NCBI GenBank assembly: GCA_002633005.1
Contig: NMRA01000580.1
Span: 62,001 to 126,000 of the forward strand
Reading direction: 5' to 3'
Length of the DNA stretch: 64,000 bases
Source of the DNA: Phoronis australis
Lineage: Eukaryota; Animalia; Phoronida
Shown here: positions 7,241 through 53,339 of the stretch, one piece after another
Layout of the letters: every line of letters starts with the position of its first letter
Numbering within the stretch: position 1 is the stretch's first letter
Position numbers and translations under genes: made by a program
Notes under the pieces: generated by a model
What the model was told of the DNA's origin: nothing
The model's database searches: none
Seen by the model: the letters and a program-made list of their open reading frames with translations, nothing else

Positions 7241-7370
7241 GTCGAGTGCGGCACTGTCACAACACACAGGTTGTGCAAAATTGTTATTAAGTATGAAATT
7301 GGACATTTTTGACAAAGTTGTTGTGTTATTACAGTCTACTTATATGATAATATGTTTGTTTACATTGTAG

Positions 7371-10005: not shown

Positions 10006-10344
10006 AGTACGCCGCTTATACCATTTACAACTACAAAAATGGTGGTTGGTCATCAGTTGTATATGGGCAGTTTCTTCGTCACCACTTCCACGTGCGCTCA
10101 AACATTTTCTATCATTTACAGGGCCAACCCGTATATTATGAGGTGAAGCCTGTCCCACACGTTGCGTACATCCGGGACGAGAGCTGCTTGTACAATGCCA
10201 GCCTGACTGTGACATTACTAAATACACGAAATAACAGTAGACTTCAAAATGCACGTGGCTCTAATTCGAGCAACGTGAGCTACTCCTTTGCATGCGACCT
10301 TGATGAAGAACATGTCATAATGACAGGCACAGTAACTTTCAGTC
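10006..10344 (+). CDS. Gene A exon: second half of second Ig-like domain
   Basis: tccag|AG...C|gtgagt, 339 nt, phase 1-1. YNASLTVTL...YSFACDL...GTVTFS; several N-glycosylation sequons. Confidence 0.7.
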
Positions 10345-27167: not shown

Positions 27168-28497
27168 AGGCGAAGTCAACCCTTTTCCATGTCATTTTGA
27201 GCTAAAATAAGGTGGGTTGGTTATCCTAGACATATTTTCCACTTAATTACAGCTTTTCGTAATTTTATTAATTACTCGTCCGCTACTCCGGAAGTGACGT
27301 TTTAGGAGGCACGCGTTTCCCGCCACTTGGTTTTGCGTTGACTTTACCGTGCGAATCTGTTCTATTCTACTTTTGTTTTGTGCTGTTTTTCAACAATTTT
27401 CGCCACCACTTTCCATCGGCGAGTATTCTGCGGCAAGATAGGTTAGCAGACAACTCAACTACGTTGGATTTAGGGATTGTTTAGTGTGTTGTAAGCTGAA
27501 AATGGCTGGAGTCGATGACCCGTATCACAGTGACAGTAGTGTGAGTGACGGAGACCTTGTTCACAGCAGTGGTGACGAGGAATTTTTTCACGGACATTCA
27601 GTGGGTGGGTACATGTTTGAGCCNNNNNNNNNNNNNNNNNNNNNNNNNNNNNNNNNNNNNNNNNNNNNNNNNNNNNNNNNNNNNNNNNNNNNNNNNNNNN
27701 NNNNNNNNNNNNNNNNNNNNNNNNNNNNNNNNNNNNNNNNNNNNNNNNNNNNNNNNNNNNNNNNNNNNNNNNNNNNNNNNNNNNNNNNNNNNNNNNNNNN
27801 NNNNNNNNNNNNNNNNNNNNNNNNNNNNNNNNNNNNNNNNNNNNNNNNNNNNNNNNNNNNNNNNNNNNNNNNNNNNNNNNNNNNNNNNNNNNNNNNNNNN
27901 NNNNNNNNNNNNNNNNNNNNNNNNNNNNNNNNNNNNNNNNNNNNNNNNNNNNNNNNNNNNNNNNNNNNNNNNNNNNNNNNNNNNNNNNNNNNNNNNNNNN
28001 NNNNNNNNNNNNNNNNNNNNNNNNNNNNNNNNNNNNNNNNNNNNNNNNNNNNNNNNNNNNNNNNNNNNNNNNNNNNNNNNNNNNNNNNNNNNNNNNNNNN
28101 NNNNNNNNNNNNNNNNNNNNNNNNNNNNNNNNNNNNNNNNNNNNNNNNNNNNNNNNNNNNNNNNNNNNNNNNNNNNNNNNNNNNNNNNNNNNNNNNNNNN
28201 NNNNNNNNNNNNNNNNNNNNNNNNNNNNNNNNNNNNNNNNNNNNNNNNNNNNNNNNNNNNNNNNNNNNNNNNNNNNNNNNNNNNNNNNNNNNNNNNNNNN
28301 NNNNNNNNNNNNNNNNNNNNNNNNNNNNNNNNNNNNNNNNNNNNNNNNNNNNNNNNCTCCTAAAACGTCACTTCCGCAGTAGCGGACGAGTAATTAATAA
28401 AATTACGAAAAGCTGTAATTAAGTGGAAAATATGTCTAGGATAACCAACCAACCTTATTTTAGCTCAAAGTGACATGGAAAAAGGTTGCCTTCGCCT
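27168..28497 (+). mobile_element. Young Kolobok-type element with TIRs of at least 140 bp and TTAA TSD, spanning the assembly gap
   Basis: TTAA|AGGCGAAG...CTTCGCCT|TTAA; near-perfect inverted arms 27168-27308 and 28357-28497. Internal ORF MAGVDD...GGYMFE(P) runs into the Ns. Confidence 0.8.
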
Positions 28498-31075: not shown

Positions 31076-32161
31076 CTTTACCATGTATATTTCTACTCGT
31101 ATTTCAGGAGTTGAGCTCGTGAAAAGGCCCCCCTCCCACCCCCAATTTGGCGAATTGGACAAAAACAAAAAGGTCCGCCTCAGTGAACAAAATTCCCGAG
31201 TAAACGAGACAAATGTCTACGAAATCCACGGAAGTCGGCGCGGATGAACTGTGGGCCTGAACGTGGTGGTCCCGTTTTATTTAGTCCTCGGTGATTTTTT
31301 TCAGTGAAAAAAACATATCGAAAAATTGGAGCCCCTTACATGTATATTTTAGGCTGGGTGCGCGCATGGAAACACACCTGCCAACTTTGATGATGATCCT
31401 CCTAGGGGTTTAGGAGATACAGCTACTGGCGCCGGACGACGTATAACCATAGGCGGTGATGCAATCTTTGGGGCGTAGAGACGAGAGCAGACTTGTCCAC
31501 CAAGAGATCCTATCATAATGCCACAGCTTTTAAACGTACATGTATTGTGCGTGGGCATGAAATTGCACGTCGTCCACCTGACAAAGACTTGCGGCTTGCT
31601 AAGAAGCTTGAAGTGACCTGACTACTTAGACTAGTTTATCACTACAAAATTGTTTGATCTGGGTCACCGGACGCTCAAACAGAGACGGTAACACTATGCA
31701 CCCAGATATGTCTACATGTATCTTGTGAGCGAATAAAAATAGCCAAAGAATCCGTCGAATTCGTCCGAAACAGAGTTTCTGTTGTCATCACAATAGAAAC
31801 ATTTTTGCTTAATTTTGAAAAATAAAGTTAGCCGCGTAATTGAGTAAATACAGTGGAAACGTAAGCAAATAGAATTTGTCACGAGGCTCACAACAGTGGT
31901 GCAATGCGTCCCAGATTTGCTGTTGCCTGGCATTAGCTTCATACGAACACACCAGCCAAATTTCAAGAATCTTTATCGAACGCCGAACGCCGCCGAATGC
32001 TGGGGCAGAGATGACGGGATATGCACAAACGCTTATGCCTTGGTTTGAGTTGAACAACAAGCGATACGTCATTTGATGACTCCAATAAGCAACGCATGAT
32101 TTTCCCTTTGTTTCAACTTACGTCACAGAAGATCTGTCGTCAAATTGCGACTGACATTGAC

Positions 32162-32240
32162 ATGACTGTATCGTCATATATATTGTTTGTAATTATCGTT
32201 GTTTTCATAATTATGTTGCTGTCACAGACCACAAGCTCAG
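32162..32240 (+). CDS. Gene B first coding exon: signal peptide
   Basis: ATG...TCAG|gtaaga, phase 1; MTVSSYILFVIIVVFIIMLLSQTTSS has a hydrophobic core and small residues at the end. An upstream acceptor at 32128 suggests a 5'UTR intron. Confidence 0.7.
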
Positions 32241-35200
32241 GTAAGAGGTACGCGGTAGTCAAAGTCCCATCGAAAACCAGCTTGTACATTTGCGGATGAA
32301 CGGTCGAACTCGTATTTGTAACCCTCTTGTGCTCAACCTGTTAAATGTACTTAGTTGTCAAAACCACGTTTTGTATTTTCGATAGTGTTAGAATATGCCA
32401 AGAGCCCTCTAGATTTACATATTATGTTGTTTTGCCAAACTGCAGTAATGTTCTGAATTTCCAAAAAATGGGAAAGAAATTACCAATGGCAATGACTCAA
32501 CGGGAATTCAAGTGACATTGCAACAAGGGGATGAGATACATGTATGGGCTATTCCCCACAATGCAATCTACTTTTCGTAGAGTTAGGTCACGGATTAATA
32601 ATCGAATTATCCCAGACAGGTAAGCTGTGAAGCTGTGTGCCCTAAGTGTTTACAGGCACAGAGGCACATGTACGAAACTTCAGGCAGAAACCTCGTATAG
32701 AGCACATTTGACCATAATTTTGTAAATCAAATCGTCTGCTGCTGCACAGAATTGTCCAATGAAACAAAAGATAGCAAGCCAACTTTTCACTAAGAAACCA
32801 CTCTATTCAAGTAGTCAGTTGGCAAAATTTACAGGCAATTATGCAATTCTAACGATCAGTCCTCAGCGGTCTGCGCTTCAACCTTTAATTGATGGGCCCA
32901 CATTGCAAATGACATCAGCTTGCAGATATGATTGTGGTATTAAGCGTCTCATTGAATCCGTCGGAATACACCCGTAGACGTAAAAATCGTCCCGAGGTGA
33001 CTCCACGGTAGTTTGACCAGCTCCAAAATCAGCGTCAACCGTGTTTTCTCAGTTGGAGAACATCTGCCAAAAATGACCATTTGAGCGGTTTGGTGAACAC
33101 AGAGGCGGGCGCTCAACAAATTGCTCAGTATACATGTCGAATCCATTCGAGAATGGTAAGGGAGCTGTAGCCCTGGAATGCCAACTTCAATCTCACGCTG
33201 CTGAGGTTGCGCCACGTATGCGTGGCATTTGTTTACATTCATTTGTTCAGGTGTTGGTTATTCCTGTGGAATTTACTGTCACTAAAAGTTTTCGAAACTC
33301 TGCCGTTTTCCAACAGAATTATATAAAAGTCACATCCTCAGGAAGCCTTTTTGTCATTTCATGACGGTGTATCATTATATCAGATTAGCAAGCGATAAAA
33401 AATTAATTACAATTTCTGCGCATACCTGACAGGTTTAAAAATGTATTTACCAAAATGCAAAAAATAACAGGGTCAAATAATAAACATAGAAGGGAAATGA
33501 ACCAAAGGGAATTAATTAAACCAGCAGAATAATAAGTTCAATAATTCAAAAGATGTATTCACTATCAATTGAAAGATTTTAGAATGTGGATCCCCAGTTG
33601 CAGTGAAGCCTAAGTCAGGCATTCATCCAACAGACGTTCATTTGTCTCTTTGTAATCATATGGATATTGTTATTTTCCAGATTGCAATTTCTTTGGGAAC
33701 ATACAGCCCTAAAAATGTGTTCCAATGTCTCTTGTTTACGGTACATACACTAATTTTTCACTTTATGAAGAAAGAGTTTATTTTCAAACCACATGTGCTG
33801 TGGAATGTCTTACACTGCAGCCTATATGTATCACTGGCAGTCCTGTTATCATTATAATGTCCCTGAAACCGCGAGTTATGTCCAATAAAAACCGTGGATA
33901 TTTAAATTTGTAACAAGCGCCACCTATTGACTTCCTGGAGAACTGTGTGTACAAGAATAATCAGGAAAAACAATTTGTAACTAATACACTTGAAAACAAG
34001 CGTTAACATATAAGTAACCCAATTACAAACATTTGCGCAATCGTTATTTGAAAATGAAATAAACAAATATTAAAATCTGTGCCTTGTTTTATTAGGGTAA
34101 CGACAGTGCTGTAGGGGTCTCCCAGTCCCATGTCCTAAGAAATGTGGACGAGAAGTGTGTGCAAAGTGGCGTGATGTTGAATACTGTCCAAGGTGGTGGC
34201 AAAATGAAATTACAGAACGAATGCTTTCATTGTGGTCAGTGTGATGAGTGCTGACTAACAGCCAGACCTCAGCTGTTTATGGCCGGCATCGGGTGTTCGG
34301 TGCCATGATGAAATATTACCATACTCATTTACATAAAATTGTGTCGCAAAATGAGACTTTCCCGAGTTTGTAATGGTTAATGGTTCTCAGATGGTTTGCG
34401 ACACACTGGAGGAACTGGGGTTATTTGTAAATTTTAAAATACTTCATTTGCATATTCGCAATTTAAGGAGACGATGCATCTTTAAACGCTGCATAAGGTT
34501 ATGAGGGACCTTGTCGACAATTTTGTACATTTAGCCAAATAGGAATATCTACAAAAAATATAGAGTTTAACTCAGCAATATATGCATTTGTGCTGAAAGT
34601 AGAAATTTCGTAAAATTTTAAATTTTGACTTCAAACCATTCATGCTATTAATTAGGTCACGTGACCTTGCTTTTTAGGATTGTTAGCAAACAAAGAATTG
34701 TACATTCATGGCAAAACAACCGGCACAATAACATGCCTAAATTTCCTATGACATGAATGTTCAACATAAAAACTCAAAAACGGCAGTGGCGGATCTACAT
34801 GGTGGGTGATTCAGGGGCGTTAACCCCTGCCTTGGGACAGGATCAAAAAAAATAAAAAAATAAAAAAAACGTCACCAGCAAAACGAAAACGGCACCGCCA
34901 GCTTTGGTGAACCCCGAAAAATATAATTTTTTTCACATTATGGTTTGCTATAATCTCGAAAAGCAACGCATTTCGAGTTTTCGTGACTCATTGGCAAGTC
35001 GCGCGGTGTTCAATTTTGAGGGCGCTTCCGTCAACACTTCTGGCGTAGCCAAACACTTTGCATGTACATGTACATGGATCCATTGCGTAAAAAGCAAAGC
35101 CCTACAGCTGATTTTTTAAGGTAACTAGCGTCTTTTATCTAAGATATATTTTGATATGATAAGAATACTGCAACACTGATAGTCAGGTGAATCGACATGC

Positions 35201-35679
35201 AACGTTTTTACCTCATCTGTCATGTTCTTACATTCCGCATGTTTCTAACTTAAATTGGACTGGTGTATAATAAAATTATCTTGCTCATTAAACATACACT
35301 GTACATGTAATGTAATGTTTATATAAAAAACGAACAACTCATTTCCGAAGTAGTGTTTAGTCCTCTGTAGGGGCCGTTGTGGCGGGTGGTGTGGTTTGGT
35401 CGCGAGTCCGTTTCAAAATACACCCTAGCAAGTTAGGCCTATACAAGGAATGATCCCAAGGGGCACTCATATTGACAAGGTGATCGCATTCGCAAACAGT
35501 GTACAGTGGCATAAGTTGCGGGAAGGCTGTACTTTCTTAGCCTTGAGGGACTGGCGCGGTGTTCAAATAGCCATAGTTCTGACCTCAGCGTTGACCGTCT
35601 TCCGACCCGCAATAAGAATCAATCACTGCCCTCTAAAATAACGGGAATTTCCACAGAAAGGCCCATCCGATGAAACCAC

Positions 35680-37030
35680 CATGACTATGGGCGCTTATTT
35701 AGTGATACAACTTCGGGTTTCAAGTGTTCAGACATTGGAACGTCTATTCGGAAAATTGCAAGAGATGCAAATTGGTTCTGGGACACATCGTCTTCGCCAA
35801 AACGCAACGTTTGAAGCACTCCATGATGAACGTGTCAAACATAGTTATGCTTGTAACTCTTTTGAATGGACTTGACAAAATCAAGGGGTTTAGTGCCAAT
35901 TAAGATGCAAAACGAGATGCTGACATTGTAGAGGCTTACAAGCTCATTAAGACAGCAGTTGACGAAGTACTAGCATTAAGAACAAACATCGAAAATCTAT
36001 GTCTGGGGAGAATGGTTCCAAGACGCGCAAACTACACGTATAGCTGAGATTCAGAACATTGGATCCGATATTCAGATTCTTCGGCAGTCCAGACACCGGA
36101 AGCCGAGGGCTAATGTTCCTGCAGAAACACCCAGGTAATAAATTCCACGCATTTTTGTACTTAATGTCGGTTTTCTGACTTACTTTTAAATTTGCTGCTT
36201 GAGTACATTGAAAAGGAATTTGGAAATATTTTCGGACATACCAAATCCACGCAGTAAACCACACAGTCTACGAGCGCACAGAAACTGAATCAAATTTGTA
36301 TTTCCATTTGGTTCTTTATCCCCTTCATAACCACAATCTATGGCAAATGCTGCGTAGTGAAATTTGTTGTCAATACTCGTTTCTTCAAGTGAGTACTACA
36401 GAACAGTGGAAATACCCTTCCTAGACAACCTCTCACAGAGGTGACCACCACGTTTTCGAAAGACAAAAGGCTGGTGGAAGCTATCATTTCTTGTACCATT
36501 AGCAGAATGAGGGATGCAGACTTAGGCTCACTGGAGGATCGGATGCATTTGTGGGACATAGACTTTCCATCACCAGATTTCCTGAAGCTGACTGTCCCAC
36601 TTCTGGCTATCGGCATTTTGAGTGAAACGTTTTGTCTCCTTTTAAATTATCAATTGCTCTATGTAATTGTAGAAACATAAAAAGTATCGATATCTTTTGC
36701 TTGTATTTCAGCGAGAGCTCCGACGTTGTGACGGTCCTTCTGAAATGCTCAAAGGCCAGAAGAATGGCCAAGTAACTTGCGTTCTACACTCAAGCACGCC
36801 CTCGGACGGCGACATCTTTCCAGACGTTAGGGAACTGATATTGATAGAATGTGTACCCTCTCTTGGATCCTGTGAGGTTCAGAGATCAATTTCTGTGCTC
36901 AGGCATGTAAAGACACATTTGGTGGCTACTATATCTGAGGAAAGGGTGGGTGGGTTAGCACTGATGACCATGCATTAGGAAAAAACGAAAAGACTAGACA
37001 CGCCACTGGTAGTCAATTAAAGCTCTTTCA
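35680..37030 (+). mobile_element. Decayed hAT transposase (C-terminal dimerization domain)
   Basis: FPDVRELILIECVPSLGSCEVQRSISVLRHVKTHLVATISEERVGGLALMTMH matches FP.+..L..+..T.P..S.E.ERSFS.L+.+KT.LR.TM.EERL..LAL..+H; upstream DADIVEAYKLIK fragment. Confidence 0.8.
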
Positions 37031-38614
37031 ACAGAGCAAACCAAGGCGTGTGTTTTGCAACTGTGTGTTGTTTGACTGAACGTGTGCCACGTTTTGCCAA
37101 TGAGCAACAGCAAGATGAATTAAATACGTGTATGAGGAACCACTGGGGATCAAAAAGTATCTAAGGGAATAGTTTTCAATTCAGATACTTTGCACAGTGC
37201 CCTTTTGGTCTGGCGATGGACCAGGCCAACTTACATGTATTTATGAACCTCTTGTCAGTGTATTTCTGGCCTCTCGACAAACTGGTCTTGTACAGTATAT
37301 CTTTTCACCACGTTGGTCACGTGGATTTTAGGTGATACGTTTCTCAATTGTTGCGACACACAGTAGCTCAATAATCAACGTGAAAAAGCTTAATAAAGTG
37401 AATCGCAAGTGTTCATTGTCGCTTTAAACAATAGACTATGCGCTGAGATAACCATCGTTTGTCATTTTTTTCCTGTAACGAGACAGAACATCCGTTTATT
37501 TCCGGCCATAAAAATTCCAGTCTTCGTTCTTAAACAACTAGGGGATGCTGTCATCTGATCATCTGAGTGATAATCAAGTGCTGGATTCTTACGTGGCCGT
37601 CGGTGCTCCTTATGCTGTTGAACATCTTGTACATGTAGTTGTTTAAACCACTGTTCATGAGCAGCGCAGTACTGAAATAAGTGGGGAGAGGGGGGTTATA
37701 GCCCCTCCTCCCCCTATGGTGCGCCGCCCATGTGTATACACACTACAGCTTTCAGAATACGACTTTTTGTATGTGTAGACAGATGTTCTAACTGGTGGCA
37801 TGACTCATACAAAGATGTGCACAAATATGGCTTTATGAAACTTAAAAGCCGATTTCATGAAACGAAACCGAGAAAGGTTTTAAATCATCTTAAGAAAAAC
37901 TCTAAAGACACTTTAACTGCCACAAACTCGCCAGGATGCATGGAAATTACACTATTTGACTACAAAAACAAAGAGTTCTCTTAGACGAGAGGGGAAAACC
38001 CAATTCCCGACCTTCCCCCGCACTCGGCGCTACGCGCCTTGGAATCGTGCTTCTAACCCCTAGACCGGTCACTGAAACACTGTTATAGTGTTCTAAATTT
38101 ACGTTCTGTTTTTGTTTTATGAATTTTTACTTTTTTGTACAATCACATTATTCCTATTTTGATAATCCTTCACGCAAAAGTGGAACAATTTAAAAACAAT
38201 TCGTATCAGCATTTTAAAGAACATTCTAGAAAATACTTGAAAGTTCGCAATTTATGAGATACGATGTCCCAAAGTAGGCCAAAATTAGACATTTTAAGGC
38301 TCTACATAAACTTCAATCGGTCACTTTCGTAATTTGGTTTTTGATAGTATTTGTGTCTTGAAACTATCATTTTGTATTGAGATTGACACTGCCACACCAC
38401 ACTGACCTTAAGTCAAATAAGGCGCATTTGGTTTAGCTCTCTATTTTTGAAAATCGAGTCGGTGGTAGGGCGTTCTTTCTCATCGTTTGACAATGATGCC
38501 GCTTCAATCCTTGCTTACCCTTGTTTACATACATTCACGTGCTTTTGAGCAGACCTTGAAAGCAAATGATGCGGGTGGATATACGTACAGAATACTTTTT
38601 GCTTCTCGTGGTAG

Positions 38615-38890
38615 ATATTGATCAACCAAGACAACCAATGGCCTGGCGAGGGCGCATAAATAATGCATTACTGGTTCGTTTCTGGAGTCATTACGACGTA
38701 CCAACGGACATTTCTCTCACGTGTTTTGCTAATGGCACCAACGGGAACTTGGTGAAAGGACGCGTAGAGAGAGCGGAGCTACCCCCTTGGATGTTTGGAA
38801 CCTGTGAAAATCTTCTTCCAGACCTAGACTACGAAATAGAAATTAATGAAAGACTTAGAGCTGAATCGATACAAGAAAAAATAATATATG
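38615..38890 (+). CDS. Gene B exon: FN3-like domain 1
   Basis: ggtag|AT...G|gtgtgt, 276 nt, phase 1-1; LLVRFW..LTC..GTCENLLPDLDYEIEI. Confidence 0.75.
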
Positions 38891-39058
38891 GTGTGTAATG
38901 AGAGTTTCCGAATCTTGGATTTACTTTTGCACTTGTTTGAAACTGTGTAAAGTGTCTATCTAAACGAACCATGTGCGTCTTTCAAATTGTTAGTCTTTTA
39001 AGTAACATCCCAACAAACCTATTCAAACTTCTGATTAGATTATTATATAATATACCAG

Positions 39059-39361
39059 GTAAATCTCACATCCTCAACATTCAAGCAGCAACGGACGCTT
39101 TCATTGTCACGTGGTCCCCGCCTATTACCGATGTTACTAATAGAAACGTTCTTGAATGTTCTCTGGACGACTCATTCAGTTCGATCGAAAAGCCAAAGAT
39201 TGGGCAGAGCGAGGTGAAAGAATATTACAGTAACGAGAACGACAAGTTAGTGAAAGGCCACTGCTCCAATTTGATTGCTGGCACTAGATACCGAGTGTCC
39301 GTTGTCACCCATTCAAGGTTCGACGGAAGTGAATTTCGCTCATTTCTGCATGCAAGAACCG
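39059..39361 (+). CDS. Gene B exon: FN3 domain 2
   Basis: accag|GT...G|gtacgt, 303 nt, phase 1-1; AFIVTWSPP..LEC..HCSNLIAGTRYRVSV..ART. Confidence 0.85.
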
Positions 39362-41470
39362 GTACGTAGGATGCAGATATGACGCGAGGGTTCGACAGTT
39401 TGCCAAAAAGCAATATTTGTTTTACGACATGAACTAAGTTAGAGAACATTTGAATATGATCTTTAATGAATAGAACAGATAATTACGTTTGAAAAAAGGT
39501 TACATTTGCAAGAGTGCAAGAGTTTTTGTTATTTTGGCATTTAATACAAGCACATGACCTCAAATTCCACAATTGCGTCATACAAAATAATAGACAATTG
39601 CAAGCAGACAGTGCAGTACATGTGACTTAACTAAAAACACCCATTTTGAACTTGAAGAAACATTTTGTCTTAGATGGTTCACGTCAAATTAATAGTATGT
39701 TTATAGATGGACCAGGCAGAGGGTGACAAAAGCCATGTCACAGATTTCCTCTATACTATCTGTGTGTGTGATGAGCCTGGGCCCACCGTCTCCAGACTAA
39801 ATTAATTTTTTTCAAAACACCCCCTTTTGGTTTCCATGGATACCATTTGTTTCTGGCCAGTTGTGAACCTAGCGGCAGTTGAGTTTTAGCAAAATTTAAA
39901 GAGTTAGCTTGAGCAGTGGAAATTACGTTGAAATATTGAACTTGTGTTACCGAGCAGTGTGTCCTTGGCCGACCTGACCCCTTAAAAATCCTGGATCCGC
40001 CCCTGCTACGTTTGATCTTGTGTCGGCGTAAAACTGCCAATAGTCCATTTTCGCTCTAAATCTGCGTCGCAAATGCACACCGCGGCATCATTCAGTTGCA
40101 CCTATATCATGCAAGTCTGATATATTTAAAATTTAAACATGGTCTGACAAAGTCTAAAGTTAAACCTGGTTTAAGATCTTAATACTGATCTAAAGAATAT
40201 AAACCTCGTTGGTGAAATGAAAACTGAATTAGACCAGGTCTAAACTGGAGTTAAACCAGGTTTTACCTGACCACTGGTCTAAAAGTTTCACAACCTTTGT
40301 GAAATGCAGATTATCTTTAAACCTGGTCTAAGTCCAGTTAAAACCAGGTTTAACTTTAAACCAACTTTATGAAATCGGCTGTAAGTGTACTGAATGGCCC
40401 TTGGCTATCCTAGACTCCAACGACGGCCACTTGACCGGTTTATCATTCGACTTAGCAACTCAAGACTATTCATTAGTTTTCACAGTTATGCAGGCCTACT
40501 GAATTTCACCACTGGGCACAATAAAAAGCTTTGTCTCTATACTGTTCAAAAACAAGTAACACTGCTGGTTGACATATGTTGTTACATTTTTATAATACGT
40601 GCATGTTCAGATAGTTTGTGAATTTCCGGAAAAGAGAACCAGTTACTTCCACAGCATGATATTAGCTACGGGGGGGGGGGGGGGCCCCNTCCAGACATAT
40701 GGATGTTAAGCTGGGAAACAATAGAGTGGCTAGCCTCGATCATTGAGAATTTGTCCGAAGTTGTGGCACATGTCGCCCCCCAATTTCGGCATCTGCCCAC
40801 CAATGGGCGGGCGAGCGGGCTGCTGGATAATACCCTGACCCTATTCCTCAGAACTTCCCAACCACAACAGAAAAAACTCATTTAATGCAGTGGAGGCAGT
40901 CGGTAGTATATGCAAAACTGTTAACATTTTCCACACACGAGGCTTGCTCTCCATGCTGCCATCTTGTCTCTGAGCTATATTGCCGCAAGCTGATGTGATT
41001 TGTGAAAAGATGCAAACAGTTAGCATAGTGACCTAGTTTGTACTTCAATGCCATTGGTTCATTTAGAAACGGGACCTACCCATGAGATCTTAATATGGCG
41101 GAACCGAAAACAGACGTCGAAGTCTCTAATTTTGAGGTGGTCCTTTTTATCGACAATTTAAGTTTCTCGAGTTTTGGGTTGCTAATGCTAGTGGAGGAAA
41201 CTTGAACAGTAATGCAGGTATCCTTTTTAACTACTGTGAAGGTCGCACATTCCACATTTCATCAAATTGCTTTGACAACCACCGTTAGCAAAAACTGCAA
41301 GCAAAGCCACCACATGTGAAATGCAGTGATTGGGTGTGCCAGGTGCTTAGCAAAGATACACTTGCATGTTCTCTTAGTTTGTACATTGTTACATACATCA
41401 ATGCCATGTATAGTGACCGGTAGGCCCGTATCACTAAAGACCTTCTATCTGTCATTTAATCCATTTCAAG

Positions 41471-41731
41471 TGTTGTCCATGGTTTCAAACGTCGTGGTGA
41501 AGGAACAGAGTGAATACTCCATCAATACTTCGTGGGTCGCTGCTGAAGGCAACTTCAAAGAATATGTTGTGTCATGTAAGAGACGATTGGAGTTGCACGA
41601 GCTGGTCGTTCGTAATGGGACGTCAGCTGTATGCGACGGACTTGTGCCACCGCTAAGTTTGTACCAAGTTTGGGTAATAACCCGGCGATACGGGTGGAGC
41701 AACGTCACCAGCAACATTCATGATGTATTAG
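41471..41731 (+). CDS. Gene B exon: FN3 domain 3
   Basis: ttcaag|TG...G|gtacgg, 261 nt, phase 1-1; SINTSWVAAEGNFKEYVVSC..CDGLVPPLSLYQVWV. Confidence 0.85.
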
Positions 41732-42039
41732 GTACGGAGACTAGAAGCCGTTCTCACTTCATAAATAGCAGTATTCATGATCGGTCGAATCAGAACATTG
41801 TCACCAACCCTCACGAGAGGCTTACCAAGCAACCGCTGTCTATAATGAGATGCTTAGGGGTCAACCAGGATTGTTGGTGACTTTTATAAGCAATCCGACA
41901 AAGTTAACGCGCCATGGCTTGCAAACTGCCATATTGGTAAGATGTAACCTGTCTGCGAGCGTTGCCACTTTTTATTGTCGGAAAACATTGCCAGGTACAT
42001 CACTAGCACAAAAAAGATAATGTTTTTAACGGTTTTAAA

Positions 42040-42605
42040 AACGAAAAATTTCACCCGTAATTCAAGTGGGTCAATCAATAACTGGTCGCCGGGACTTCAA
42101 AACCACTTGCCCGAACTTCAGAACCACTAGGCTGGACTGCAAAACTAAATCACCGGGTATCAAACTTGTTGTCCGGACGTGATTGCCTCACCCCAAAAAA
42201 TAGTTGGCTGGACCCCAAACACGATGGACGTTGCTATTATAACCAGTTGGCAAGTGATCAAACACGACGGTCGGACTTTTTCAGAGACTCGCATTGAATA
42301 TCTCGAAGGATTCAAGTGACATCTAGTGCTTATTTTTCAAACCACTTTGTCTTGTTCAAAGTCGGCGATTTGTTCGACCATTGTGTTTGAGCACCGGCCA
42401 ACCCGTTTTAGGTACAGCCAATCAAAATTTTGGATGCTGCCATCTGCTTTTGAGGTACCGGTAAACATGTTTTGAGGTCCGACCACCAAGTTACAACATC
42501 TGCAATTGGGTTTTGCAATAAAGCCAGATGGTTTTGAAGTCCGGGCAAGTGGTTCTGAAGTCCGACCAGTTGTTGACCCTCCCCCTTGTAATTGGTAGTT
42601 TTTAT
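42040..42605. mobile_element. MITE-like element with inverted subterminal tandem repeats
   Basis: ggacttcaaaaccacttgcccg units on the left are mirrored by cgggcaagtggttctgaagtcc on the right. Confidence 0.65.
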
Positions 42606-44167
42606 TGCTGACTAATTCAGCGTGACCTCACTATTCAAGTAGATCAATCTTGTATCTTAATATGCTCCCGCAGATTCAGACGGCGCACTGTGTCATTTAT
42701 AAAGTAACAAAGGAAAACTATTTATGATCAGCATTTCCCATGTAAATAAAAGTTGTGGCGGCTCGCCACGCTTCTTTTTTGGCGCCGCAATTTGTACTTT
42801 CTCCCAAATTGACCGCCACCCACCTCAGAATCCTGAGGGGAAAACTTCACCGCTACGCAAAAATCTCTAGTTGAAATGAGCACCCATTATACACATCTTA
42901 CAAAGCTACTGTCGATATTTGTGGACTAAACGTGAAAAACAAGTATTTAAGATCGGATTCTGAACCTCCGCTTGTTAAACATAATAATATTATCACGGTT
43001 ACTCTTCTTCCTCACGTTGCTTAATGACCGGGGCAACATACAGTACTCACCTGATAATGAGCAAGAATATGATAAATCATTTCAACGGAAGTTTCATTGT
43101 ACAGGTTAGTTAATCGAGTCTAAACAGTTCAAATATTTTTCGTTCCATGCACGTACCTGGAGCCGGAGAGTTCAATTTTAACTAGTAGCCTGAAGCCCTG
43201 TCCTGGCGTGCCCGATTCCTGCCCCAATTAAATTGGCAATTCAAATACGTTAAATTGATATAAAAGTCTACACTATAATGGCGCTCGTTCACCTGATTGA
43301 AAAAGCGTCTGTGTCTCATTCTGAGAGGATAACTTTTTGAGTGAGGGAAAAAATTTTCCCACAGTCTACATCAATAGCACCCCACCTTTTTCGCTAGCCC
43401 GCATAGGCTCTGTCTCAAGTAGCCTGTGTGAATTAAAAGAAAGTCGAATATTGAGGGGAATTTTTTTATCACTTGGGGGAATTTTTGAGCCTCACGAGGG
43501 GAAATTTTCGCGCTATAGTAAAATATTATTCAGAGGGGAATGGAGCCGATATTAAGCTCCAAAATTGAGGGTTTGAGGGCCCTAGACCGAGATCACACAG
43601 TGATTCTTTATTCGCTCCGTATCCGCTGCCACCATTCACCATCACCTAGGCAATGGGGGGATCCCATTTCCCATACTCACGTGACGGGATTTGTATCCCA
43701 CTGGACCATTTACCACCACACTCCTTTCCAAACCTAGAGGAAACACTGAATGATGTTCGTGTATTTTACAAATACGTTTCTTCAACTTTGTTTATTGCGC
43801 AATAAATGCATGGGCAAGTCTTACTAGGAAATAATTATTTGGTTCATGGCTGACTACTATATGGTAATTACCGACAGAAAAGCTAAACGTACGCTCAGGC
43901 GCGTTTTTGGCTATGAAGTAAACACGTTTAACCAAAATCATCGCCAATCTATACCTTAAATGACGAAATATAAAAGAACCTCAAAAGATTGAGCAGAAGC
44001 AAAACTTGATAACGGAAGCCACAAACATACCGGCCGGCTTCTTCTGTACATACATGTAGTGTTTTTCGAAACGACGCGTCAATAGACATTGTGCTGTTTG
44101 AAACAGTTGTCAAGTGGTCGAATATACTACAAGGTTCCAAAACTTACCTGTTACTTGTTAATTTCAG

Positions 44168-44227
44168 GTAACGAGTTCGCCTTCAATGAAACCTATGACG
44201 CGAGGAAACAAAGAACTAAGTTTAAAG
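44168..44227 (+). CDS. Gene B 60-nt juxtamembrane microexon
   Basis: tttcag|GT...G|gtaggt, phase 1-1; GNEFAFNETYDARKQRTKFK. Confidence 0.65.
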
Positions 44228-44399
44228 GTAGGTCTTCTAATTCGCTTGACCCCCAATGTATTACTGATACTTAAATCAGTTTTTGGCCGCAATAAGATTA
44301 AAAACCGGACGATCGCCACGCAAATAAAAAAGTTCATGTTCAATTCAACGTTTTGTCTTTTCATTAGACACCATCAGGATCATAATTGCAACAATTTAG

Positions 44400-44426
44400 G
44401 ACAACAAGTGCCAACGTACAGCTCAG
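44400..44426 (+). CDS. Gene B candidate 27-nt microexon
   Basis: atttag|GA...G|gtaaca, phase 1-1; GQQVPTYSS. Confidence 0.35.
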
Positions 44427-45504
44427 GTAACATCCATAGAGGGAAGTGATGGATACATAGATTATAGTCAGTAGCTGGTCATTACCACAGTTGCAGGGTC
44501 ACTGAGCTCTGCATGTTATTCAGAGAATCAGTGGCATGCTGGTTCTGAATGGCCAATAACTCTTTAAATGTACAGTAACTCCTTATTAGGTTCTCTGCAG
44601 ATAATACTAACAGAGTTGGCTTGGTGATTGTAGCTAATACAATGCCTATATAATTATGTTACTTTGCTCTGAGGTGTGATGTTCTTTCCACCTGTCACAG
44701 AGGCGTCTCTGTGTGAGTCCTATATAGAATTCCTTACAGTTGTCACATTCAACCTTATACACAACATTGCTCTTGTTCAATAAAGGGATGGGTGACTTCA
44801 GTTTACACAGCATATTGGAAAGTTTCCGAAAGGGTTTGAAAACAACTATCAGGTCAAACTGCTGGGTCTATGCAATTGATATGGAGAGATAATTGACGTT
44901 TCAATTTTATACTACTTGGCCCGGTGTAACCAAGAGAAAAGAAAACTTAATTTTTCTCGGGTCCAATAAAAGCTACCTTATCTGCCTCATTCATTTTTGA
45001 AAGAAAGTGCCTTTTACAGCTATTCAGAAAATTGAGGGTAACCATTGGCACGTAATAACTGGAAAATCATAGCTACGTCACTATCAAAATTTAAATTGGT
45101 GGAGCAGATTTTCCAGACACGGTCAACAAGCAATTGACTATACCTCTCTTGTAGTGGATAGGCCCAAAACTATCAAATCTAAGATAAAGCCCAGAAAAAC
45201 TGCGGCGATCATCCGGTTTTTAATATTACTGATACTTCAATGTATTAACAGTACATGCACAACAATCACATCTCTGCAGGCTTTGTATGCAGATAGGGTG
45301 CACGACTTCAACATCGTCAGTTTACGTAACGAATAAGGAACACGTCTCCAACATCACAACTCTGTTCTCGAGTTCTGTATCCAAACACGGCCAATAAGTC
45401 TCATACAAAGTTCAGAATTCACGAAAAATCGGGCGTACAAAGCGCACTTTGTCAGCTTGAGTTGATGTCCGTGTATCCTGTTAAAGAGTGAGTTTATATG
45501 AACG

Positions 45505-45652
45505 CATTTACATATACATTTACATATACATTTACATATACATTTACATATACATTTACATATACATTTACATATACATTTACATATACATTTACATATA
45601 CATTTACATATACATTTACATATACATTTACATATACATTTACATATACATA
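45505..45652. repeat. Perfect 12-bp tandem repeat (TACATTTACATA)n
   Basis: Direct inspection; explains the CKCI/YIYI/TFTY ORFs. Confidence 0.95.
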
Positions 45653-45969
45653 CCAGCGCTTTTCCAGTCATCTGTTGTCACGACCGTCCATAGACGCCGT
45701 TTCTTGTCTGTTGTCATGACCGTCTGTAGACGACATTGATGGTCAGTTGCTATGACTACGGATTTACGGCGTTACCGTTAGTGAGTTGTCATAATTGCCT
45801 AAAGATGCTCGTCTTTCAGCCACACAACTTCCAAATGAATTGATTATTTACTTTGGGTGTATGCGTATAGTCAATTACAGATAATTTCGAACTTGATATT
45901 TTTTTATTCTATGATGGCCACACGCCGTTTAACCCGAAACGTGGCTTTCAAAAGTGAACACTTTTAAAA

Positions 45970-47750
45970 CGAGTGTCTTGATAACGCAGATCAAGAAACC
46001 GCGGACATAAAAAGCGAAAACTCTAGAAAACGCAGAACTAAAAATCGCTGACTCTTATAAACGCTAGAAACCAAAGTCCCTAGAAAAAACAACCCCAGAA
46101 AACGCAGACCTAGAAACAGCTGTCCATAGAAATCGCTGATTATAGAAAACGCAGTCCCAGAAACCACAGTCCTTAGAAAACGCAACCCCAAGTAACCGCA
46201 GACTCTAGAAAAAGCAGACCCATGAACCAGAGTCCATAATCCCCAGATCCTAGTAAACGCAAATATGTAAATCACAGTCATTAGAAAACAAACGCAGACT
46301 TTGAAACCACAGACGCTAGAAATGCATTTCGTATTGGAAATTTTGTCAATGATAGAATGAACTGTATGGTAACAACAATTAAACATTCGTCTCAGTACAC
46401 AAGTAGGCCTACGTTATCACGTAGACCATTACATTATACACTGTACCAGCTGGAACCCGTGCTACATGTAGTGCTTTCGCTGTGTTTACGCTAGACACGG
46501 GAAGTTGCTATGGTGATACATGTTTAAGTTAGGGAACAAAAATATCACGTAAAGGCTCTGCTGTTATCATTTCTGTTTAGGCATTATTTGTTAGTGTCGT
46601 CAATTTGTGTTTTTAAATATCGCGTTTCATTTTTCTTTGAACGTCCATTTTTATAGTTATTTCACAGTACACAAATGTGATGGTGATAATCCACGAAGTA
46701 CATACACGCAACGTGTACCTCAAATGCTTATGTACAGATAAATTATCTTGGTACTATTCCCATCATAGTAGAGCTTGGAGTGGGTTAGCTCTGCGAACAG
46801 ATTGTGGCAAAGAGAGTCCGCAGTGGCCTTGACTTCCGGATTACAGCAGCTTCTGTGCGACACGTCTCACACTGTCATTGTCTTCCAGCAAAATGGAGTC
46901 TAATACACGTCTATTTTAACCTATCCAGTACTTGATCATGTTCTGTTGTAGCAGATCTTCAAATGATGTTCTACCGGGTCAGTACGTGGAAGAGTACTGT
47001 TCGTGGGCTGAAAAGTTCGAGATTTTTAATCAGTTATTTACAAAGAGGTATTTTCAATCTTGTTTTTTGTTGTAAACGGTACCTGTAAATGAGAAAAAAC
47101 AACGTAAGATGATTAAGTGCAACTGGCAGCCATTTTAATATATCAGTGTTCACCGCGACTAGTTTTAACCTGTCGCTTTGTGTTTGCCCATAACGAAAAA
47201 TGGCTGCCAAGTCTAGTCCAGTTACATGTATGATGGTCTTTACTCTTTCCAATAAGTTTGGATTTTCAGTTGACTGGAGAACACTGACTGTAGCATGTCA
47301 CATGAAGGCGCAGTGAAAAATTGTGTGTAAAATGTCATTGACAATACAAAGTTAGAGAGTTGCGTGATATCGGCAATGGATTGTGGGACATCGATAGTGC
47401 AAGCAGAATGAAACCAACCATTGCAACCAGAGAGCAAACATCAAGATTTTCTGTCAACAGGTGGTGAGGAAAATATATATCCCTCAATTCTATTACCACA
47501 AGATCCATGACGGAGACCTTCGTGTCGGGTAAAAATAAACGTCCATCTCGGACTAAGCTCTTCCAAAAATGTCAATTTAACTTAATCTAAAATTAACAGT
47601 GCAATATAACTTCATTCCACATGATTTGAAAAATAGCGTAGACCTCAGAAATCGCGTAAAATGACTGTGTCAGCATTTCTATGGTCTGCGGTTTCTAGGT
47701 TTGCCTCTCCTAAGTTCTGTAGTTTCTAGGTGTGCATTTTATAGGGCCTT
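45970..47750. mobile_element. Putative DNA-transposon remnant with inverted subterminal repeats and a PHD-like fragment
   Basis: ctagaaaacgcagac repeats at 46000-46320 are mirrored by ggtctgcggtttctag at 47680-47730; minus-strand GCNGWFHSAC resembles a PHD finger half. Confidence 0.5.
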
Positions 47751-49107
47751 CGATGAGTGCGAAGTCTTCGGCTTATGGATCAAACCTTTTTTGAGACAGC
47801 CAGAATAGGCTGAAGTTTTTGTTTCGACAGCTGACTTGTTAGACTTTGACAGACAATCGCTGACAGGCTAGTGTACTAATGAAACTCGGAAATAGAATGT
47901 GCAGACATTCCCACAGTGATCTTTATGAACATCAAAATAGTTTAAAGGATATTTTTTTGCTGATTTACAAGAGTTTGGGCACTATTTCTTTACTTTCTGT
48001 TATGTTTAATGATTTGAGCGTGCATAGTTCCATGGATTGAAAATGAGATCAGTATGACCCTTGACCTTGGTATCAAAGTCTCAGCAGAATGTAGTTAGTA
48101 CTCATCTCATGACTATTAAGATATCGAAATGTTATATTCCTGAATTCTAATTTCGTGTAAAATTGCACCGAATAATAAAACTGTCCTTACGTTGTTCTTA
48201 AGCTCCCGAGGACGGCGAGAATGGAGATGGTAAGACTAACTGCTATTTTGCAACGTCTGTTCATGTAAATTGTTATCATGATTTTTACAACGCTAGTGTA
48301 ACCTGTGAACATTTGAAAAGGATCATGTATAGGAGAGTGAGATTCTAGTCTAAGCTTGAGTAACAAAACACCTTGTTGAATAGGATGAGGGATAACATAA
48401 TTCATGTACAGTGTACATTTACTAATGTAATCCCCATTGTTGTGTCTGAACAAGATTTTTTAGTAGTTTCCCGAAATGTTGAACATTTCTTATATATAAC
48501 CCAAACGGCCATAGACTTTCCGTACGTGGTAGGCCGACTATGCCCGGCTGCATGAAACAATACCAACTGGGGTCTCAGCAATGTCCCTTGACGTTTTAGC
48601 GCATTTGTGGAGTTGTGAAAACTCTGATTCTCTTTTCTTAGACTGTTTTGTTTTCATTACCAAGACTGGATTTAGCTTTGATACACTCTGAGAGCGAACT
48701 TACGTATACATTGAATTCTCGATATCAGTGAAAATCAATAGCCAGGACTTTTTCAGTCAACCCCTAATTTAAGGACTGAGTCCCTACTTATTTTCATTAA
48801 AATAAAAGCTCGGTTTTATTAGAAAATGGCATTGAGTCGAAGAGGGGCCCGTGATAAAGATAAAATCATAGAAACACATAACTCGGGCGAGTAAACAAAG
48901 ACACAAATACGTTGAAGATTCAGTCGGGACTGTTTCATGCAACGATAGCCACTGCGATACATACACAGTACATACTCATGCAACTTTTGGATTTTGGAAT
49001 TGATTTACGTGTATGTCACAGTGGTGGGAAAGTAAGAAACATATTTCTCTTTTTAATGTTTATTTGTGACAACTTTACATTGCAAAATGTACCTATACTC
49101 GCTACAG

Positions 49108-51317
49108 ATACGAGCAAAAGACACAGGCGCAGTGTATTTGTTTGGTTAACGCCCTTAATCATAACGTTGGCAGTATTGGTCATCTTGATTGTTTGTCTGA
49201 TCGCGCGACGCAAAGTCGGGAAACTTAGGAAGACGCCATCTATGACACAACTTTCACAGCTGCCGGAGACTACCGATAATACGGAAGGGCTTAAACTTCA
49301 AAACGAGGCGTTGCAGAAGTCGTTCGAAAGTGCCGTTGCCCAAGGCAACCACCAATCACTGAAGACAATGCTTGGAGCGTATAAAATATTCTGCAAAACT
49401 AACGTCCATTTACCCGATGATGTTAAACAAGATTGTGATAACAGTATGTCCGTATTAGAAAAAATGCTCAGAGAACAGTTGGAGCAAATCTGTGCGAAGG
49501 AGAAAGACAAACTACTGGACGCTATTTCAACAAAAGATGGATACACTATTATTTCTGCTTTATACGATTACGAATGTTTCATGGCGACCTGCAGCAAATA
49601 TATTGAAGCTGATAGAGAGCTGATTGAGACATCACTGAAGGCAATAAAAGAGTGGGGATCTGAGGCCAAGAGGCAGGCAATGTTGGACGAAGTTGGAACA
49701 TTGGAAAGAAGGCTATCAGAGACATTGCATTCAAATCATTTGGTCTTGGCAAGAAGTCAGTTGTTGGTTTTTGAAAGCATTATTATGGAGAATAAGTTAG
49801 ATGTCAACGACTATGAAATAATTGGCAGAGCCACGGATACTCTGAAAAAAAGAGAATCGGAAATCGAAACCTCGCAATTGCAAGAAATGATATTTCATGA
49901 CCATGTGGTTCTCCTTTCTCAGCTTCATTTAGCAATAGATTCAAAAACCTTGGCAAACCTAAGCGTACTTCTGAAGGAGTACACGAGCTTCTGCGAAGCA
50001 AACCGGTCTTTTATCACACCAGACGATAAAGTGATTGAAGCTGCAAACAAAGTTATTGAGTTCTATGACCAAACAAACTTATCCTTAAAACAAAACATAT
50101 CGGAGGCTGTTGATGCCAAACGTTATGATGAGCTTTCGTCCTTAATTAAACAGTATCGAGATTTTTGTGAAAACCTTTCACCTATCTTTACTGTGGACAC
50201 GTCAATTATTATAAACGCTCAGAGAGCGATAGGTGAACACGAAAAGCATATAAATGACACACACGAACAATTGAAGGTGCTGGGAAAACAACTCGAACTA
50301 GCAATTGAGACTGGGTTAAAGTTAAACATTGAACAAGCTCTTATGTTGTACACTGAGTTTGTCCATGAACACGCTGATCTGCTAGAAGTGGACCCGGAAC
50401 TTGTGTCAGCAGCACACCACGTTATGCAACGTATTCAGGAACAGGAAGGAATACGGACTGAATTCAATTACATCACAGCTTCTTTGAATAGTGCCTGTGA
50501 ATCGGAGTGTGAATATCGCATTAAGGAGATATTGGATTTCTATAAGGTGTTTGCTGAAAAGCACCGCGATACGGTAGTTATCGACGATTCGGTTTTACGG
50601 AAGGCAGAGGAGGCTATGGAACTATGTAGGATGGTGGAAAAGATTCGTGACGCCGTTGGAAATAGAGACCGTAAAGCTTTACTGGAGATAATACAATTAG
50701 CAGAGGCGGATACAAAGCGGAAGAAAAAGCTCTCAATAGAAATCGGTAAGGCAAAATGCTTGCAAGATCATCTGGACAACGTTGACCAATTGACACATGG
50801 CATTTTGAATTTAAACCGAATGACAATGTTGGAAATTCGTGACTATAGTCATCCTCCACCCGTAGTTCACAAAGTTATGATGGCGGTAATGCTGATCTTG
50901 GGTGACCCGGAATGCATCACAAAGGACTGGAACACATGTCAAAAATTGTGTGTAGCCATACGCTCTCCAACCTATCCCGGACTGTTTTACAGAATAAAGG
51001 GATACGAGTTGAAGCTCTTGAGACCTGAGATTGCTGTTCGAGCGAAGAATCTCCTTGAAGGACTGACTGAAAGTATAGTACGGGACATCAGTAAAGGTGC
51101 GCTCGCGTTTTACAAATGGGTGAACGGAATATGCGATCAGTGCTTGCTCTTTGTCGATACTTGGCCTCAAGAGGCAACTGGAGAGAGGCAGATTTGTATG
51201 TTACGAAACATGTCCGAACGAATGTCCACGGACCTGAATGAAAAATTTCAAATAATGGAAGAAATGGTAAAGAGATGGTCCAGTGCACGTTCGTCACACA
51301 ACAATTCAGATGCCTAA
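49108..51317 (+). CDS. Gene B terminal exon: furin-like site, TM helix, about 8 helical repeats, dynein MTBD-like C-terminal domain
   Basis: ctacag|AT phase 1, open 2.2 kb to TAA. RHRR|S, then TM VFVWLTPLIITLAVLVILIVCLIA followed by RRKVGK. LNRMTMLEIRDYSHPPPVVHKVMMAVMLILG..DW..VRDISKGALAFYKWV near the end; AATAAA at 51410. Confidence 0.9.
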
Positions 51318-53339
51318 AAGTAAGGTACACCTATGTACTTTGAACATCGAGAACAATGTAACCCGGACGAAAGACGAAATTTAAATCTAAATCATCGTTT
51401 TGGTTAAGGAATAAAAGGTAGTGCGTGAATGTATTAAATGTTTATTCATGTTTACCAACATTATGATAAAGCGTGCGGTTATATTACGTGTGGTCAGTTA
51501 AGGAAAAAATCGTATTCATTTTGAAGACATTGCGAAGGTTTGACTATATAGTATAGTTCCCTTGCTCAGTTCCAAACTTGTGCACCAAGGTTATCTGTTT
51601 TTATGCTAATGGGACCAGTTTAACGTCATTCGAAATTGAAAAGTAACGCAGTAGAGTAAACACGTTTAATACTCATGCAATAGTTTGACTTCCCTCCACG
51701 TTCGTTGTTATCCAAAAAGCAGATACTTACTAAGTACCACACCCAGTGACAGACGTTCGAGACCCAAGAACCTTGTAATCACACAAGATTTCACGAGATA
51801 TCCCCTTATACTACAATATTACAAACAACTAATTCTACGTGACCACAATAATTTCCTTTGCAAAATTCTGGTGTCTATGGAACACAGCTTAGATCTTTTT
51901 TGAACTATCGCGTGTTACGAAATCCTGCGCAATCATGTAGGTCTGCGCAAAATGTACTCGCCGGTTGCCTAGCTTGCCTATAATGTTGTGCATACACGTA
52001 AATGAGCTATTTGTAGGACTCCGCTGTTTCTGCTGGTTGAGACTATAGTGCCACTCATCAATCTTCAAATGCCAGTTCCTGCATGTCTTTTCCATTTCCA
52101 ATATTTGGACATCGAAAAATCGTGTTTAGCTGAACCCGGGCAGTCTCTGCAATGACATATTTTTCACGTTCAGGTTTTGAAGATGAATGCTGTTGGCTAA
52201 AAATGTCATACAAATTAAGCTGCACTGTGACTACAGAAATTACAATAGGCTAATGCCTCGCCTGTTGCAGGAGATGAGAAATAAACGATGCTCCACAGAT
52301 ATATCCACTTGCCTAGTTGAATGTTTTTCGAGAACTATAACATTATAAATCAACAAAACTTCCTTGTTGATCTTTCGACTCTCGGACATTTTTGTTTATA
52401 CCTGAAACCCCTCACGGATTTGTGAAGAACTGTTGTATTATTACATCAGCCTTAATGCTTTCCGGTAATATGCAGAAGACTACTATTACATTGTGGTTCA
52501 TTAATTTAAAAAACAGAGGGATAAATTCCGATGCCATTGTTTGATTAGGTTGAGTTTAGTAATATATTTTGGCTTTAGACGTCGGCTGGGATGCAAATTC
52601 ACTGTCCATTCGGCCGCAGTTCTTCGTAGTGGGGAATGTATGGAACATGACGTCCTTCATCCATAGGTTTTACAACAGGTTTTGCCTTTTTCCTTAAGTC
52701 ATTAGTATATGCTTCTGTATATCAGTGAAAATTTGCCGGCATTATGAAAGCAGGAAAGGTTTTAAAATGCTGTTAGGTTGAAAACGCTAGTCCAAATTAC
52801 AACAGATTTGTAGGTGGCGCTGAACGCCTGTTCACCAAAGACATGATCGCCGCCTGGTGCATGGGCGGCGCACCATAGGGGGCTGGGGGTATAGCCCCAC
52901 TTATTTCAGTGCTGGGTCGCCCATGGAATCCATGGGAGGCGCGTTATAGGAGGCTGGGGGGCTATAGCCCATATGATGGAATAGTGAATTTCAATATGGC
53001 GCGGTAATTTCGAAGTCAGATATTGTCTTGTGAGGGACACTGCTTGGAAAATCTAGCGAATTTATGATAAAGGCAGGTTTTGTGACTATCTGAGATAGCA
53101 TATTTACAGGACGTGGTTCAAACAAGTATATTTCAGTGTATTGTGGAACATATCTAAAGACATAGTGAAGTGGAATTTGACGGATTATCTATGCCTCTGC
53201 TGTGCTTTAAAGTTGTTGGATGAAGAAGTATTCCTATAGCCTAAGGGGTAAACACGGATGTGTGTTGGAGGCAGTGTGAATTTTGATGTGAGAGAAGTAA
53301 TATAATGAAAGATATGGTTGCTGCAGTGCGAAATAATAC

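Follow-up and report, generated by a model that had tools for sequence, protein, structure and literature searches.

A predicted membrane protein of Phoronis australis whose tail is a motor-less homologue of the dynein microtubule-binding domain

Introduction

Can the domain with which dynein grips the microtubule work outside a motor, at the end of a protein anchored in a membrane? The dynein microtubule-binding domain (MTBD) has been studied as a part of the motor, its affinity switched by the stalk. The question is raised by a gene in a 64,000-nucleotide stretch of the phoronid Phoronis australis (assembly GCA_002633005.1, contig NMRA01000580.1, positions 62,001 to 126,000 of the forward strand; hereafter the window), for which a preliminary description had proposed a single-pass receptor with three FN3 domains and a cytoplasmic tail ending in a dynein MTBD. 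Here we ask whether the terminal domain is what it was said to be, whether the gene is real and expressed, which proteins share its tail and what that tail might do.

Results

The C-terminal domain

The peptide on which the preliminary description rested corresponds to residues 901-1010 (about 50802-51131) and lies in an open reading frame (ORF) spanning 48882-51317 of the plus strand. All 17 matches returned from the PDB by phmmer at E ≤ 10 were dynein heavy chains or their MTBD constructs, the best being the yeast dynein MTBD (E=3.4e-5), and a profile of 80 sequences (the query with 79 of 150 listed relatives, the shorter ones being chosen) found dynein-type chains in 44 of its 45 PDB matches at E ≤ 0.01 (best E=3.6e-13). 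The Pfam MT family (PF12777), a model of 344 positions that includes the stalk, matched the tail at 12.2 bits (E=0.094), under its gathering score of 24 bits. With the AlphaFold (AF2) model of the tail (pLDDT 92.6, pTM 0.85), dynein chains ranked first in Foldseek, and the VIA alignment to the mouse stalk tip reached Z 16.5 (root mean square deviation 3.2 Å over 145 residues), against 8.6 for the best unrelated fold. Positions 36-189 of the model align with mouse residues 3262-3409, and the tail has only short coiled-coil stubs and no long stalk of helices CC1 and CC2. No Walker A motif is present in the 1,071-residue protein model and exon 7 has no AAA match in Pfam. Sequence, profile and model comparisons thus confirm the terminal domain as a homologue of the dynein MTBD, beyond chance and without a motor, as the preliminary description had it; the PDB searches, the model and its Foldseek ranking all point to dynein, while Pfam MT taken alone is weak. 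A dynein pseudogene fragment was also considered and was rejected on the continuous frame shared with a membrane span, on expression and on closer kin among non-motor proteins.

Gene model and expression

RNA evidence came from the raw reads of four runs under the same species label (X1-X4), placed on positions 31900-51800 of the window; depth figures for X1 and X2 stem from about a fifth of each run. Together with AG/GT signals and frame, the read joints give a protein of 1,071 residues from seven exons (Table 1), all introns being in phase 1. GT-AG joints were carried by 4 and 8 reads (X1 and X2 respectively) for exons 2>3, 12 and 16 for exons 3>4, 19 and 5 for exons 4>5 (41731>44168), 9 and 6 for exons 5>6 (44227>48203) and 4 and 8 for exons 6>7 (48229>49108), which gives read support for five of the six junctions in two of the four runs. 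The exons are covered on the sense strand in X1 and X2, with a strand-specific depth of 15-23x over exon 7, and in neither X3 nor X4 (depth 0 over exon 7), a difference that may reflect tissue, individual or sequencing depth. X3 belongs to the same study as X1 and X2, and its lack of exon coverage from 38540 to 51155 would fit either sample-specific expression or absence from that individual. The in-frame, phase-1 joining foreseen in the preliminary description was borne out, including the joint into the exon at 49108, but its exon count was not, as exons 5 and 6 (44168-44227 and 48203-48229) had been missed; the five-exon model, with an open frame and phase-1 introns but 1,042 residues, is superseded by the read-supported one. 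Exons 5 and 6 are symmetric in phase 1, which would allow in-frame skipping, but the joints listed include no such event. The gene model matches solely its own exons within the window, and an AATAAA lies at 51410.

The joint from the signal exon to exon 2 (32240>38615) is absent from the joints listed and was drawn from splice signals and frame only. One explanation would be that the 5' end of the model is partly wrong, through another first exon or a join to upstream immunoglobulin (Ig)-domain exons, or that the assembly is chimeric: intron 1 is 6.4 kb long and contains repeats, and the upstream region, with its Ig-like exons at 5.5-11 kb, yielded no clear exon for a membrane span before 32 kb. 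We consider this very improbable. Beyond the five read-supported junctions, exon 1 shares the depth pattern of the other exons (low sense-strand depth in X1 and X2 and none in X3, bin 31900-32563), and a scan of intron 1 for phase-1 candidate exons of at least 150 nt, with a filter that picked up each of the three real FN3 exons, gave one candidate that was not domain-like. A single exon encodes the membrane span, the repeats and the terminal domain; their linkage is thus given without any splice model, and the core claim is independent of this junction.

Table 1. Features of the gene, in positions of the window
Feature	Position	Strand	Basis
Exon 1: ATG and predicted signal peptide (residues 1-26)	32162..32240	+	hydropathy up to 2.9, GTAAGA donor
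Exon 2: FN3-like domain 1 (residues 27-118)	38615..38890	+	motif only; joint to exon 3
Exon 3: FN3-like domain 2 (residues 119-219)	39059..39361	+	sub-cut-off Pfam fn3; joint to exon 4
Exon 4: FN3-like domain 3 (residues 220-306)	41471..41731	+	sub-cut-off Pfam fn3; joint to exon 5
Exon 5: 60-nt juxtamembrane linker	44168..44227	+	joints on both sides in X1 and X2, AG/GT, frame
Exon 6: 27-nt micro-exon	48203..48229	+	joints on both sides in X1 and X2, AG/GT, frame
Exon 7, coding part: membrane span, repeats, MTBD-like domain, stop	49108..51317	+	one uninterrupted ORF
Predicted transmembrane helix (residues 345-367), then basic stop-transfer cluster	49134..49202	+	hydropathy up to 3.1; basic residues after span
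Seven helical repeats of about 58-69 residues (residues 405-840), predicted spacer rod	49314..50621	+	shuffle test; net charge -29
Family-type helical unit leading into CC1-like helix (residues 841-892)	50622..50777	+	profile match; well modelled
Dynein stalk-tip/MTBD fold with short CC1/CC2 stubs (residues 869-1022)	50706..51167	+	sequence, profile and model; core helices H1-H6 at residues 901-1010

Ectodomain, membrane span and repeat rod

The signal peptide and the single membrane span are hydropathy predictions, the span being accompanied by a positive-inside cluster. FN3-like domains 2 and 3 match Pfam fn3 under its cut-off of 25 bits (E=0.0032, 18.1 bits, and E=0.00034, 21.2 bits, respectively); eight of the nine weak PDB matches of domain 3 (E 0.27-1.5) are Tencon/Centyrin FN3 scaffolds, and domain 2 has no PDB sequence match. 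Domain 1 has no Pfam match and no meaningful PDB match; it resembles domain 2 weakly (a score reached by 8 of 1000 shuffles) and not domain 3 (161 of 1000). Beyond the span, six of the seven helical repeats, of about 62 residues each, beat all 500 shuffles, which repeat 3 does not (439 of 500), and a single-sequence model of the cytoplasmic part was all-helical but of low confidence (pLDDT 46.7) and too poor for use. The unit that leads into the terminal domain matches a profile of the pre-MTBD unit built from segments of 135 relatives (independent E-value 2.9e-6). The layout of the preliminary description, from signal peptide through three FN3 domains, span and helical repeats to the terminal domain, stands in its order; its FN3 calls come down to sub-cut-off or motif-based matches and its signal peptide and span to hydropathy.

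Relatives of the tail

An exhaustive search returned 361 proteins at E ≤ 0.001, which are unverified database predictions; the analyses here draw on 150 listed of these, and the domain survey on the 69 among them of at least 400 residues. Pfam finds Ig-like_KY in 40 of the 69 long relatives, often with a transglutaminase-like core, in keeping with the MTBD-like tails on some hillarin/KY-like proteins that the preliminary description had mentioned. Others are CLCA/VWA (two), VWA, EGF, CD20-like, LRR, SH3 or CARD-bearing proteins or carry tandem MT domains. Membrane spans are predicted in eight of the 69 (P0034, P0050, P0061, P0066, P0071, P0092, P0130 and P0144); P0044 has a further span by eye, and four KY-type proteins with weak hydrophobic peaks were left out of the count. 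A myristoylation-like start motif is found in 21 of the 69. None of the 69 has a Pfam fn3 match at E ≤ 0.001, nor, among the families listed, a dynein motor domain. The architecture is less singular than the preliminary description implied: the same tail follows predicted spans in CLCA-like, EGF-repeat, CD20-like and other predicted proteins, so the Phoronis protein is one shuffled instance of a widespread module. This undescribed module of hillarin type consists of a helical unit and, close to the C-terminus, an MTBD-like domain bearing E..Y..P and LG motifs; the Phoronis protein has it, and the MTBD-like domain ends within 100 residues of the C-terminus in 58 of the 67 proteins scored, this one included.

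Two relatives, P0015 and P0110, consist of five and four tandem MTBD-like domains; the helix-6 position is basic in all nine, closer to dynein, and they form a branch of their own. The N-termini of P0014, P0023, P0049 and P0060 look like EF-hand pairs by eye, with no Pfam EF-hand match at E ≤ 0.001; if real, they would suggest calcium-linked versions of the repeat and MTBD module. Word-based searches with exon 7 found no match, an Atlas search with the whole exon 7 protein gave no usable match, and a profile search for longer proteins gave one, P0151, named as a KY-like protein of Macrostomum lignano; the word-based and longer-protein negatives are weak because the exhaustive search yielded 361 relatives. 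With the tail as query, the Atlas returned three unnamed clusters with Mollusca as the commonest taxon (0.92, 0.89 and 0.88) and one MT cluster (0.82).

A quick tree of 116 columns, in which 38 of 75 branches stayed open, was built without true dyneins, so no donor is claimed. In it, membrane-bearing tails are scattered, seven of them needing four changes, which suggests separate captures, and the Phoronis tail forms a long separate terminal branch (0.92), its identity to any relative being at most 42%. At the position of D942 a break at Val (GTN) occurs in 29 of 36 truncated relatives versus 5 of 114 complete ones. Read from protein fragments and not from DNA, this pattern seems to mark a phase-0 intron that is conserved in relatives at codon 942 (window 50925) and absent from the Phoronis gene.

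Neighbourhood of the gene

Upstream on the plus strand lie exons of a probable immunoglobulin-superfamily gene (5457-5861, 7335-7583, 10006-10344 and 10701-11036; V-set E=0.0044), followed by an assembly gap of 733 N (27624-28356). Intron 5 contains, on the minus strand, a GIY-YIG endonuclease fragment (44649-44867, E=0.00099, under the cut-off) that is probably the remnant of a Penelope-like retroelement.

Discussion

In line with the tether suggested in the preliminary description, we propose that this predicted type-I membrane protein uses its motor-less MTBD-fold tail as a passive, ATP-independent tether between membrane and microtubules, a proposal for which we see the balance as even. 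The FN3-like ectodomain would engage a ligand or an adjacent cell and cluster the protein, the acidic repeat rod would keep the basic tail away from the membrane (net charge -29 for the rod versus +5 for the domain core), and the tail would dock on the tubulin dimer, with helix 1 and the basic H3-H4 loop making most of the contact. Binding would be weak per copy because there is no stalk for affinity switching and the helix-6 arginine is lost, so that strength would come from clustering. A gene family of the hillarin/KY type may have been the source from which the tail was captured, and the absence of the intron that seems conserved in relatives would fit capture through an mRNA-derived copy.

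The recurrence of membrane anchoring among the relatives, by predicted spans (8 of 69) and myristoylation-like starts (21 of 69), speaks for a tether, as does a protein that has a similar fold and is not a dynein. Solved non-dynein chains with an MTBD-like fold are 7jtk_C (Z 11.6), 9fqr_Xl (Z 10.3) and 9ya2_L (Z 9.2, 125 residues aligned). By elimination, from its length and its location in the accessible part of PMC12819142, 9ya2_L would be Toxoplasma ICMAP2, whose globular domain is described there as binding between protofilaments and which binds the microtubule as a dimer (PMC12819142); on that identification, a non-dynein chain with an MTBD-like fold sits on the microtubule. The main text and supplements of PMC12819142, as far as searched, do not mention a likeness of ICMAP2 to dynein, and no sequence-level match to any of the three chains was among the best 60 of 76. 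7JTK_C may be RSP2 and 9FQR_Xl may be EFCAB5. The available parts of PMC11779644 and PMC12423330 do not settle these two names, nor do they liken the chains to dynein.

The contacts with tubulin bear most directly on the proposal. According to the accessible part of PMC7042235, yeast dynein forms six tubulin salt bridges, through K3117, E3122 and R3124 of H1, R3152 and R3159 of H3 and R3201 of H6; R3201 bridges E415/E420 of alpha-tubulin, and the helix-1 glutamate is the sole acidic residue on the microtubule face of dynein. By residue correspondences read by eye from the phmmer alignment, three of the six are kept in the Phoronis tail, one depends on the alignment and two are lost: relative to yeast dynein the helix-1 side is kept (R906, E911 and R913 align with K3117, E3122 and R3124) and the helix-6 side is altered. 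Among relatives (column counts leaving out the tandem-domain proteins P0015 and P0110), 151 of 153 segments retain the glutamate of the E3122 column, and the neighbouring basic site (R3124 column) has a basic residue in 127 of 153 (83%). Relatives' cores are net positive in 71% of 124, with a median of five lysines or arginines in the H3-H4 stretch, where the Phoronis tail has four; a basic insertion after H3 is specific to the family, and all five near-invariant family positions are kept in this tail.

Several points weigh against a tether. Yeast R3201 aligns with D995, a charge reversal, with R994 one residue earlier; R3152 aligns with N944, and the counterpart of R3159 is V951 or R954 depending on the alignment. 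Microtubule affinity of dynein drops when such arginines are lost, and in yeast the loss of R3152 or R3201 impairs function, as reported in the available portions of PMC7042235 and PMC6733598 (affinity) and of PMC6733598 (function). Only 20% of relatives have a basic residue in the K3117 column and 37% in the R3152 column; the R3201 column is acidic in 45 of 118 (38%) and basic in about 14%, and a basic residue there or one position before is present in only 75 of 118. Because this query served to find the relatives, these conservation counts are biased; the 21 myristoylation-like proteins are mostly KY paralogues and hence not independent. Moreover, Z scores of 9-12 are middling for helical models, and the MTBD-like fold also occurs in radial-spoke/sperm-axoneme chains (7jtk_C and 9fqr_Xl). 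Finally, the FN3 assignments are weak, two being under the curated cut-off and one made by motif, and the signal-exon joint was not seen among the reads.

An alternative explanation is that the MTBD fold was repurposed across the whole hillarin-type family for another cytoskeletal or signalling partner, the Phoronis protein being a receptor with a scaffold tail. In favour of this are the reversed helix-6 charge and the lost helix-3 arginine, here and in many relatives, the family-specific insertion after H3, the occurrence of MTBD-like folds in radial-spoke chains and the variety of proteins that carry the module, from KY/transglutaminase-like, CLCA, EGF and CD20-like to VWA, LRR, SH3 and CARD-bearing proteins. 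Drosophila hillarin has been linked to septins. The near-invariant helix-1 glutamate and its basic neighbour speak against such a general change of partner, as does the position of the domain, which with few exceptions tips a helical arm at the C-terminus like a reaching foot, and we hold repurposing to be a serious possibility that is nonetheless doubtful. Another possibility is that the family does bind microtubules and that only this copy is a divergent passenger that lost most of its affinity after capture, the ectodomain and repeats doing the work; its long terminal branch and low identity to any relative would fit, as would the alteration and lengthening of the family's basic H3-H4 motif in this tail and the failure to find a full-length relative in searches of limited reach. 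However, the frame is intact and expressed, the near-invariant positions and the net positive core are retained with basic residues in the H3-H4 stretch, and the tail is confidently modelled, all of which makes a passenger unlikely.

Returning to the tether, we suggest more broadly, and with somewhat less than even confidence, that invertebrates repeatedly joined a dynein-derived microtubule foot to membrane-anchored proteins (FN3, CLCA, EGF, CD20-like and myristoylated KY/hillarin), forming an undescribed class of direct, motor-free anchors. Equally tentatively, this expressed FN3 receptor would be an example, backed by reads, of such putative membrane-to-microtubule anchors. If true, the MTBD would be seen at work as an independent module, in a natural, expressed version that has no stalk and sits on a membrane protein, and cells would have a one-protein link from their surface to microtubules without adaptors. 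The proposal also offers the tail of hillarin/KY-like proteins, so far without explanation, a role that can be put to the test, and the helix-6 arginine, exchanged here by nature, provides a means of learning which contacts are required for static binding. Should the tail not bind microtubules, it would still be an undescribed repurposing of the MTBD fold, of narrower interest.

Comparison with known systems

The open-access literature gave no description of a receptor, or of a KY/hillarin protein, that carries a dynein MTBD without a motor, and none is described in the available parts of PMC12366701 and PMC13071381; an "MTBD-like" motif of TTLL11 was considered and, in the portion of its source seen, is unrelated to dynein. 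The closest likeness is to the dynein MTBD itself (PDB 5AYH, 3ERR, 6KJO, 6RZB and 8I3J), with which the tail shares the six-helix fold with short CC1/CC2 stubs, the E-I-R of H1, the PP turn, the Trp of H3, the Ser of H6 and the final Trp; it differs from it by helix-6 Arg to Asp, helix-3 Arg to Asn and the insertion after H3. Dynein is a protein of about 4,000 or more residues with an AAA+ ring; the Phoronis protein has 1,071, in which helical repeats and a membrane span precede the domain instead. As it has no AAA ring, linker or long stalk, there would be no ATP-driven registry switch.

With hillarin/KY-like proteins (Pfam PF23265, PF01841) it has in common the C-terminal module of helical unit(s) and MTBD-like domain. 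It differs in that Pfam finds no KY or transglutaminase domain in exons 2-4 and 7, and in having an ectodomain and span in place of the myristoylation-like start, an enlarged rod and no apparent family intron. The predicted membrane relatives (P0034 and P0050, CLCA/VWA; P0130, EGF repeats; P0092, P0061, P0066 and P0071, CD20-like; and P0144) likewise combine a predicted span, helical repeats and an MTBD-like end, and differ by their ectodomains, which have no Pfam fn3. ICMAP2, 7jtk_C and 9fqr_Xl are non-motor proteins like this one, but share 8-10% identity with it and are not membrane proteins. Single-pass coupling of membranes to microtubules has been proposed for FN3-containing receptors reported to contact tubulin or microtubule adaptors, such as DCC with TUBB3, and for tethers of the endoplasmic reticulum such as CLIMP-63; these use unstructured tails or adaptors and not a folded, dynein-derived domain. 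The Phoronis protein thus apparently represents an architecture not described before, real, expressed and built from a known domain, which is neither a dynein nor a hillarin but carries a hillarin-type tail.

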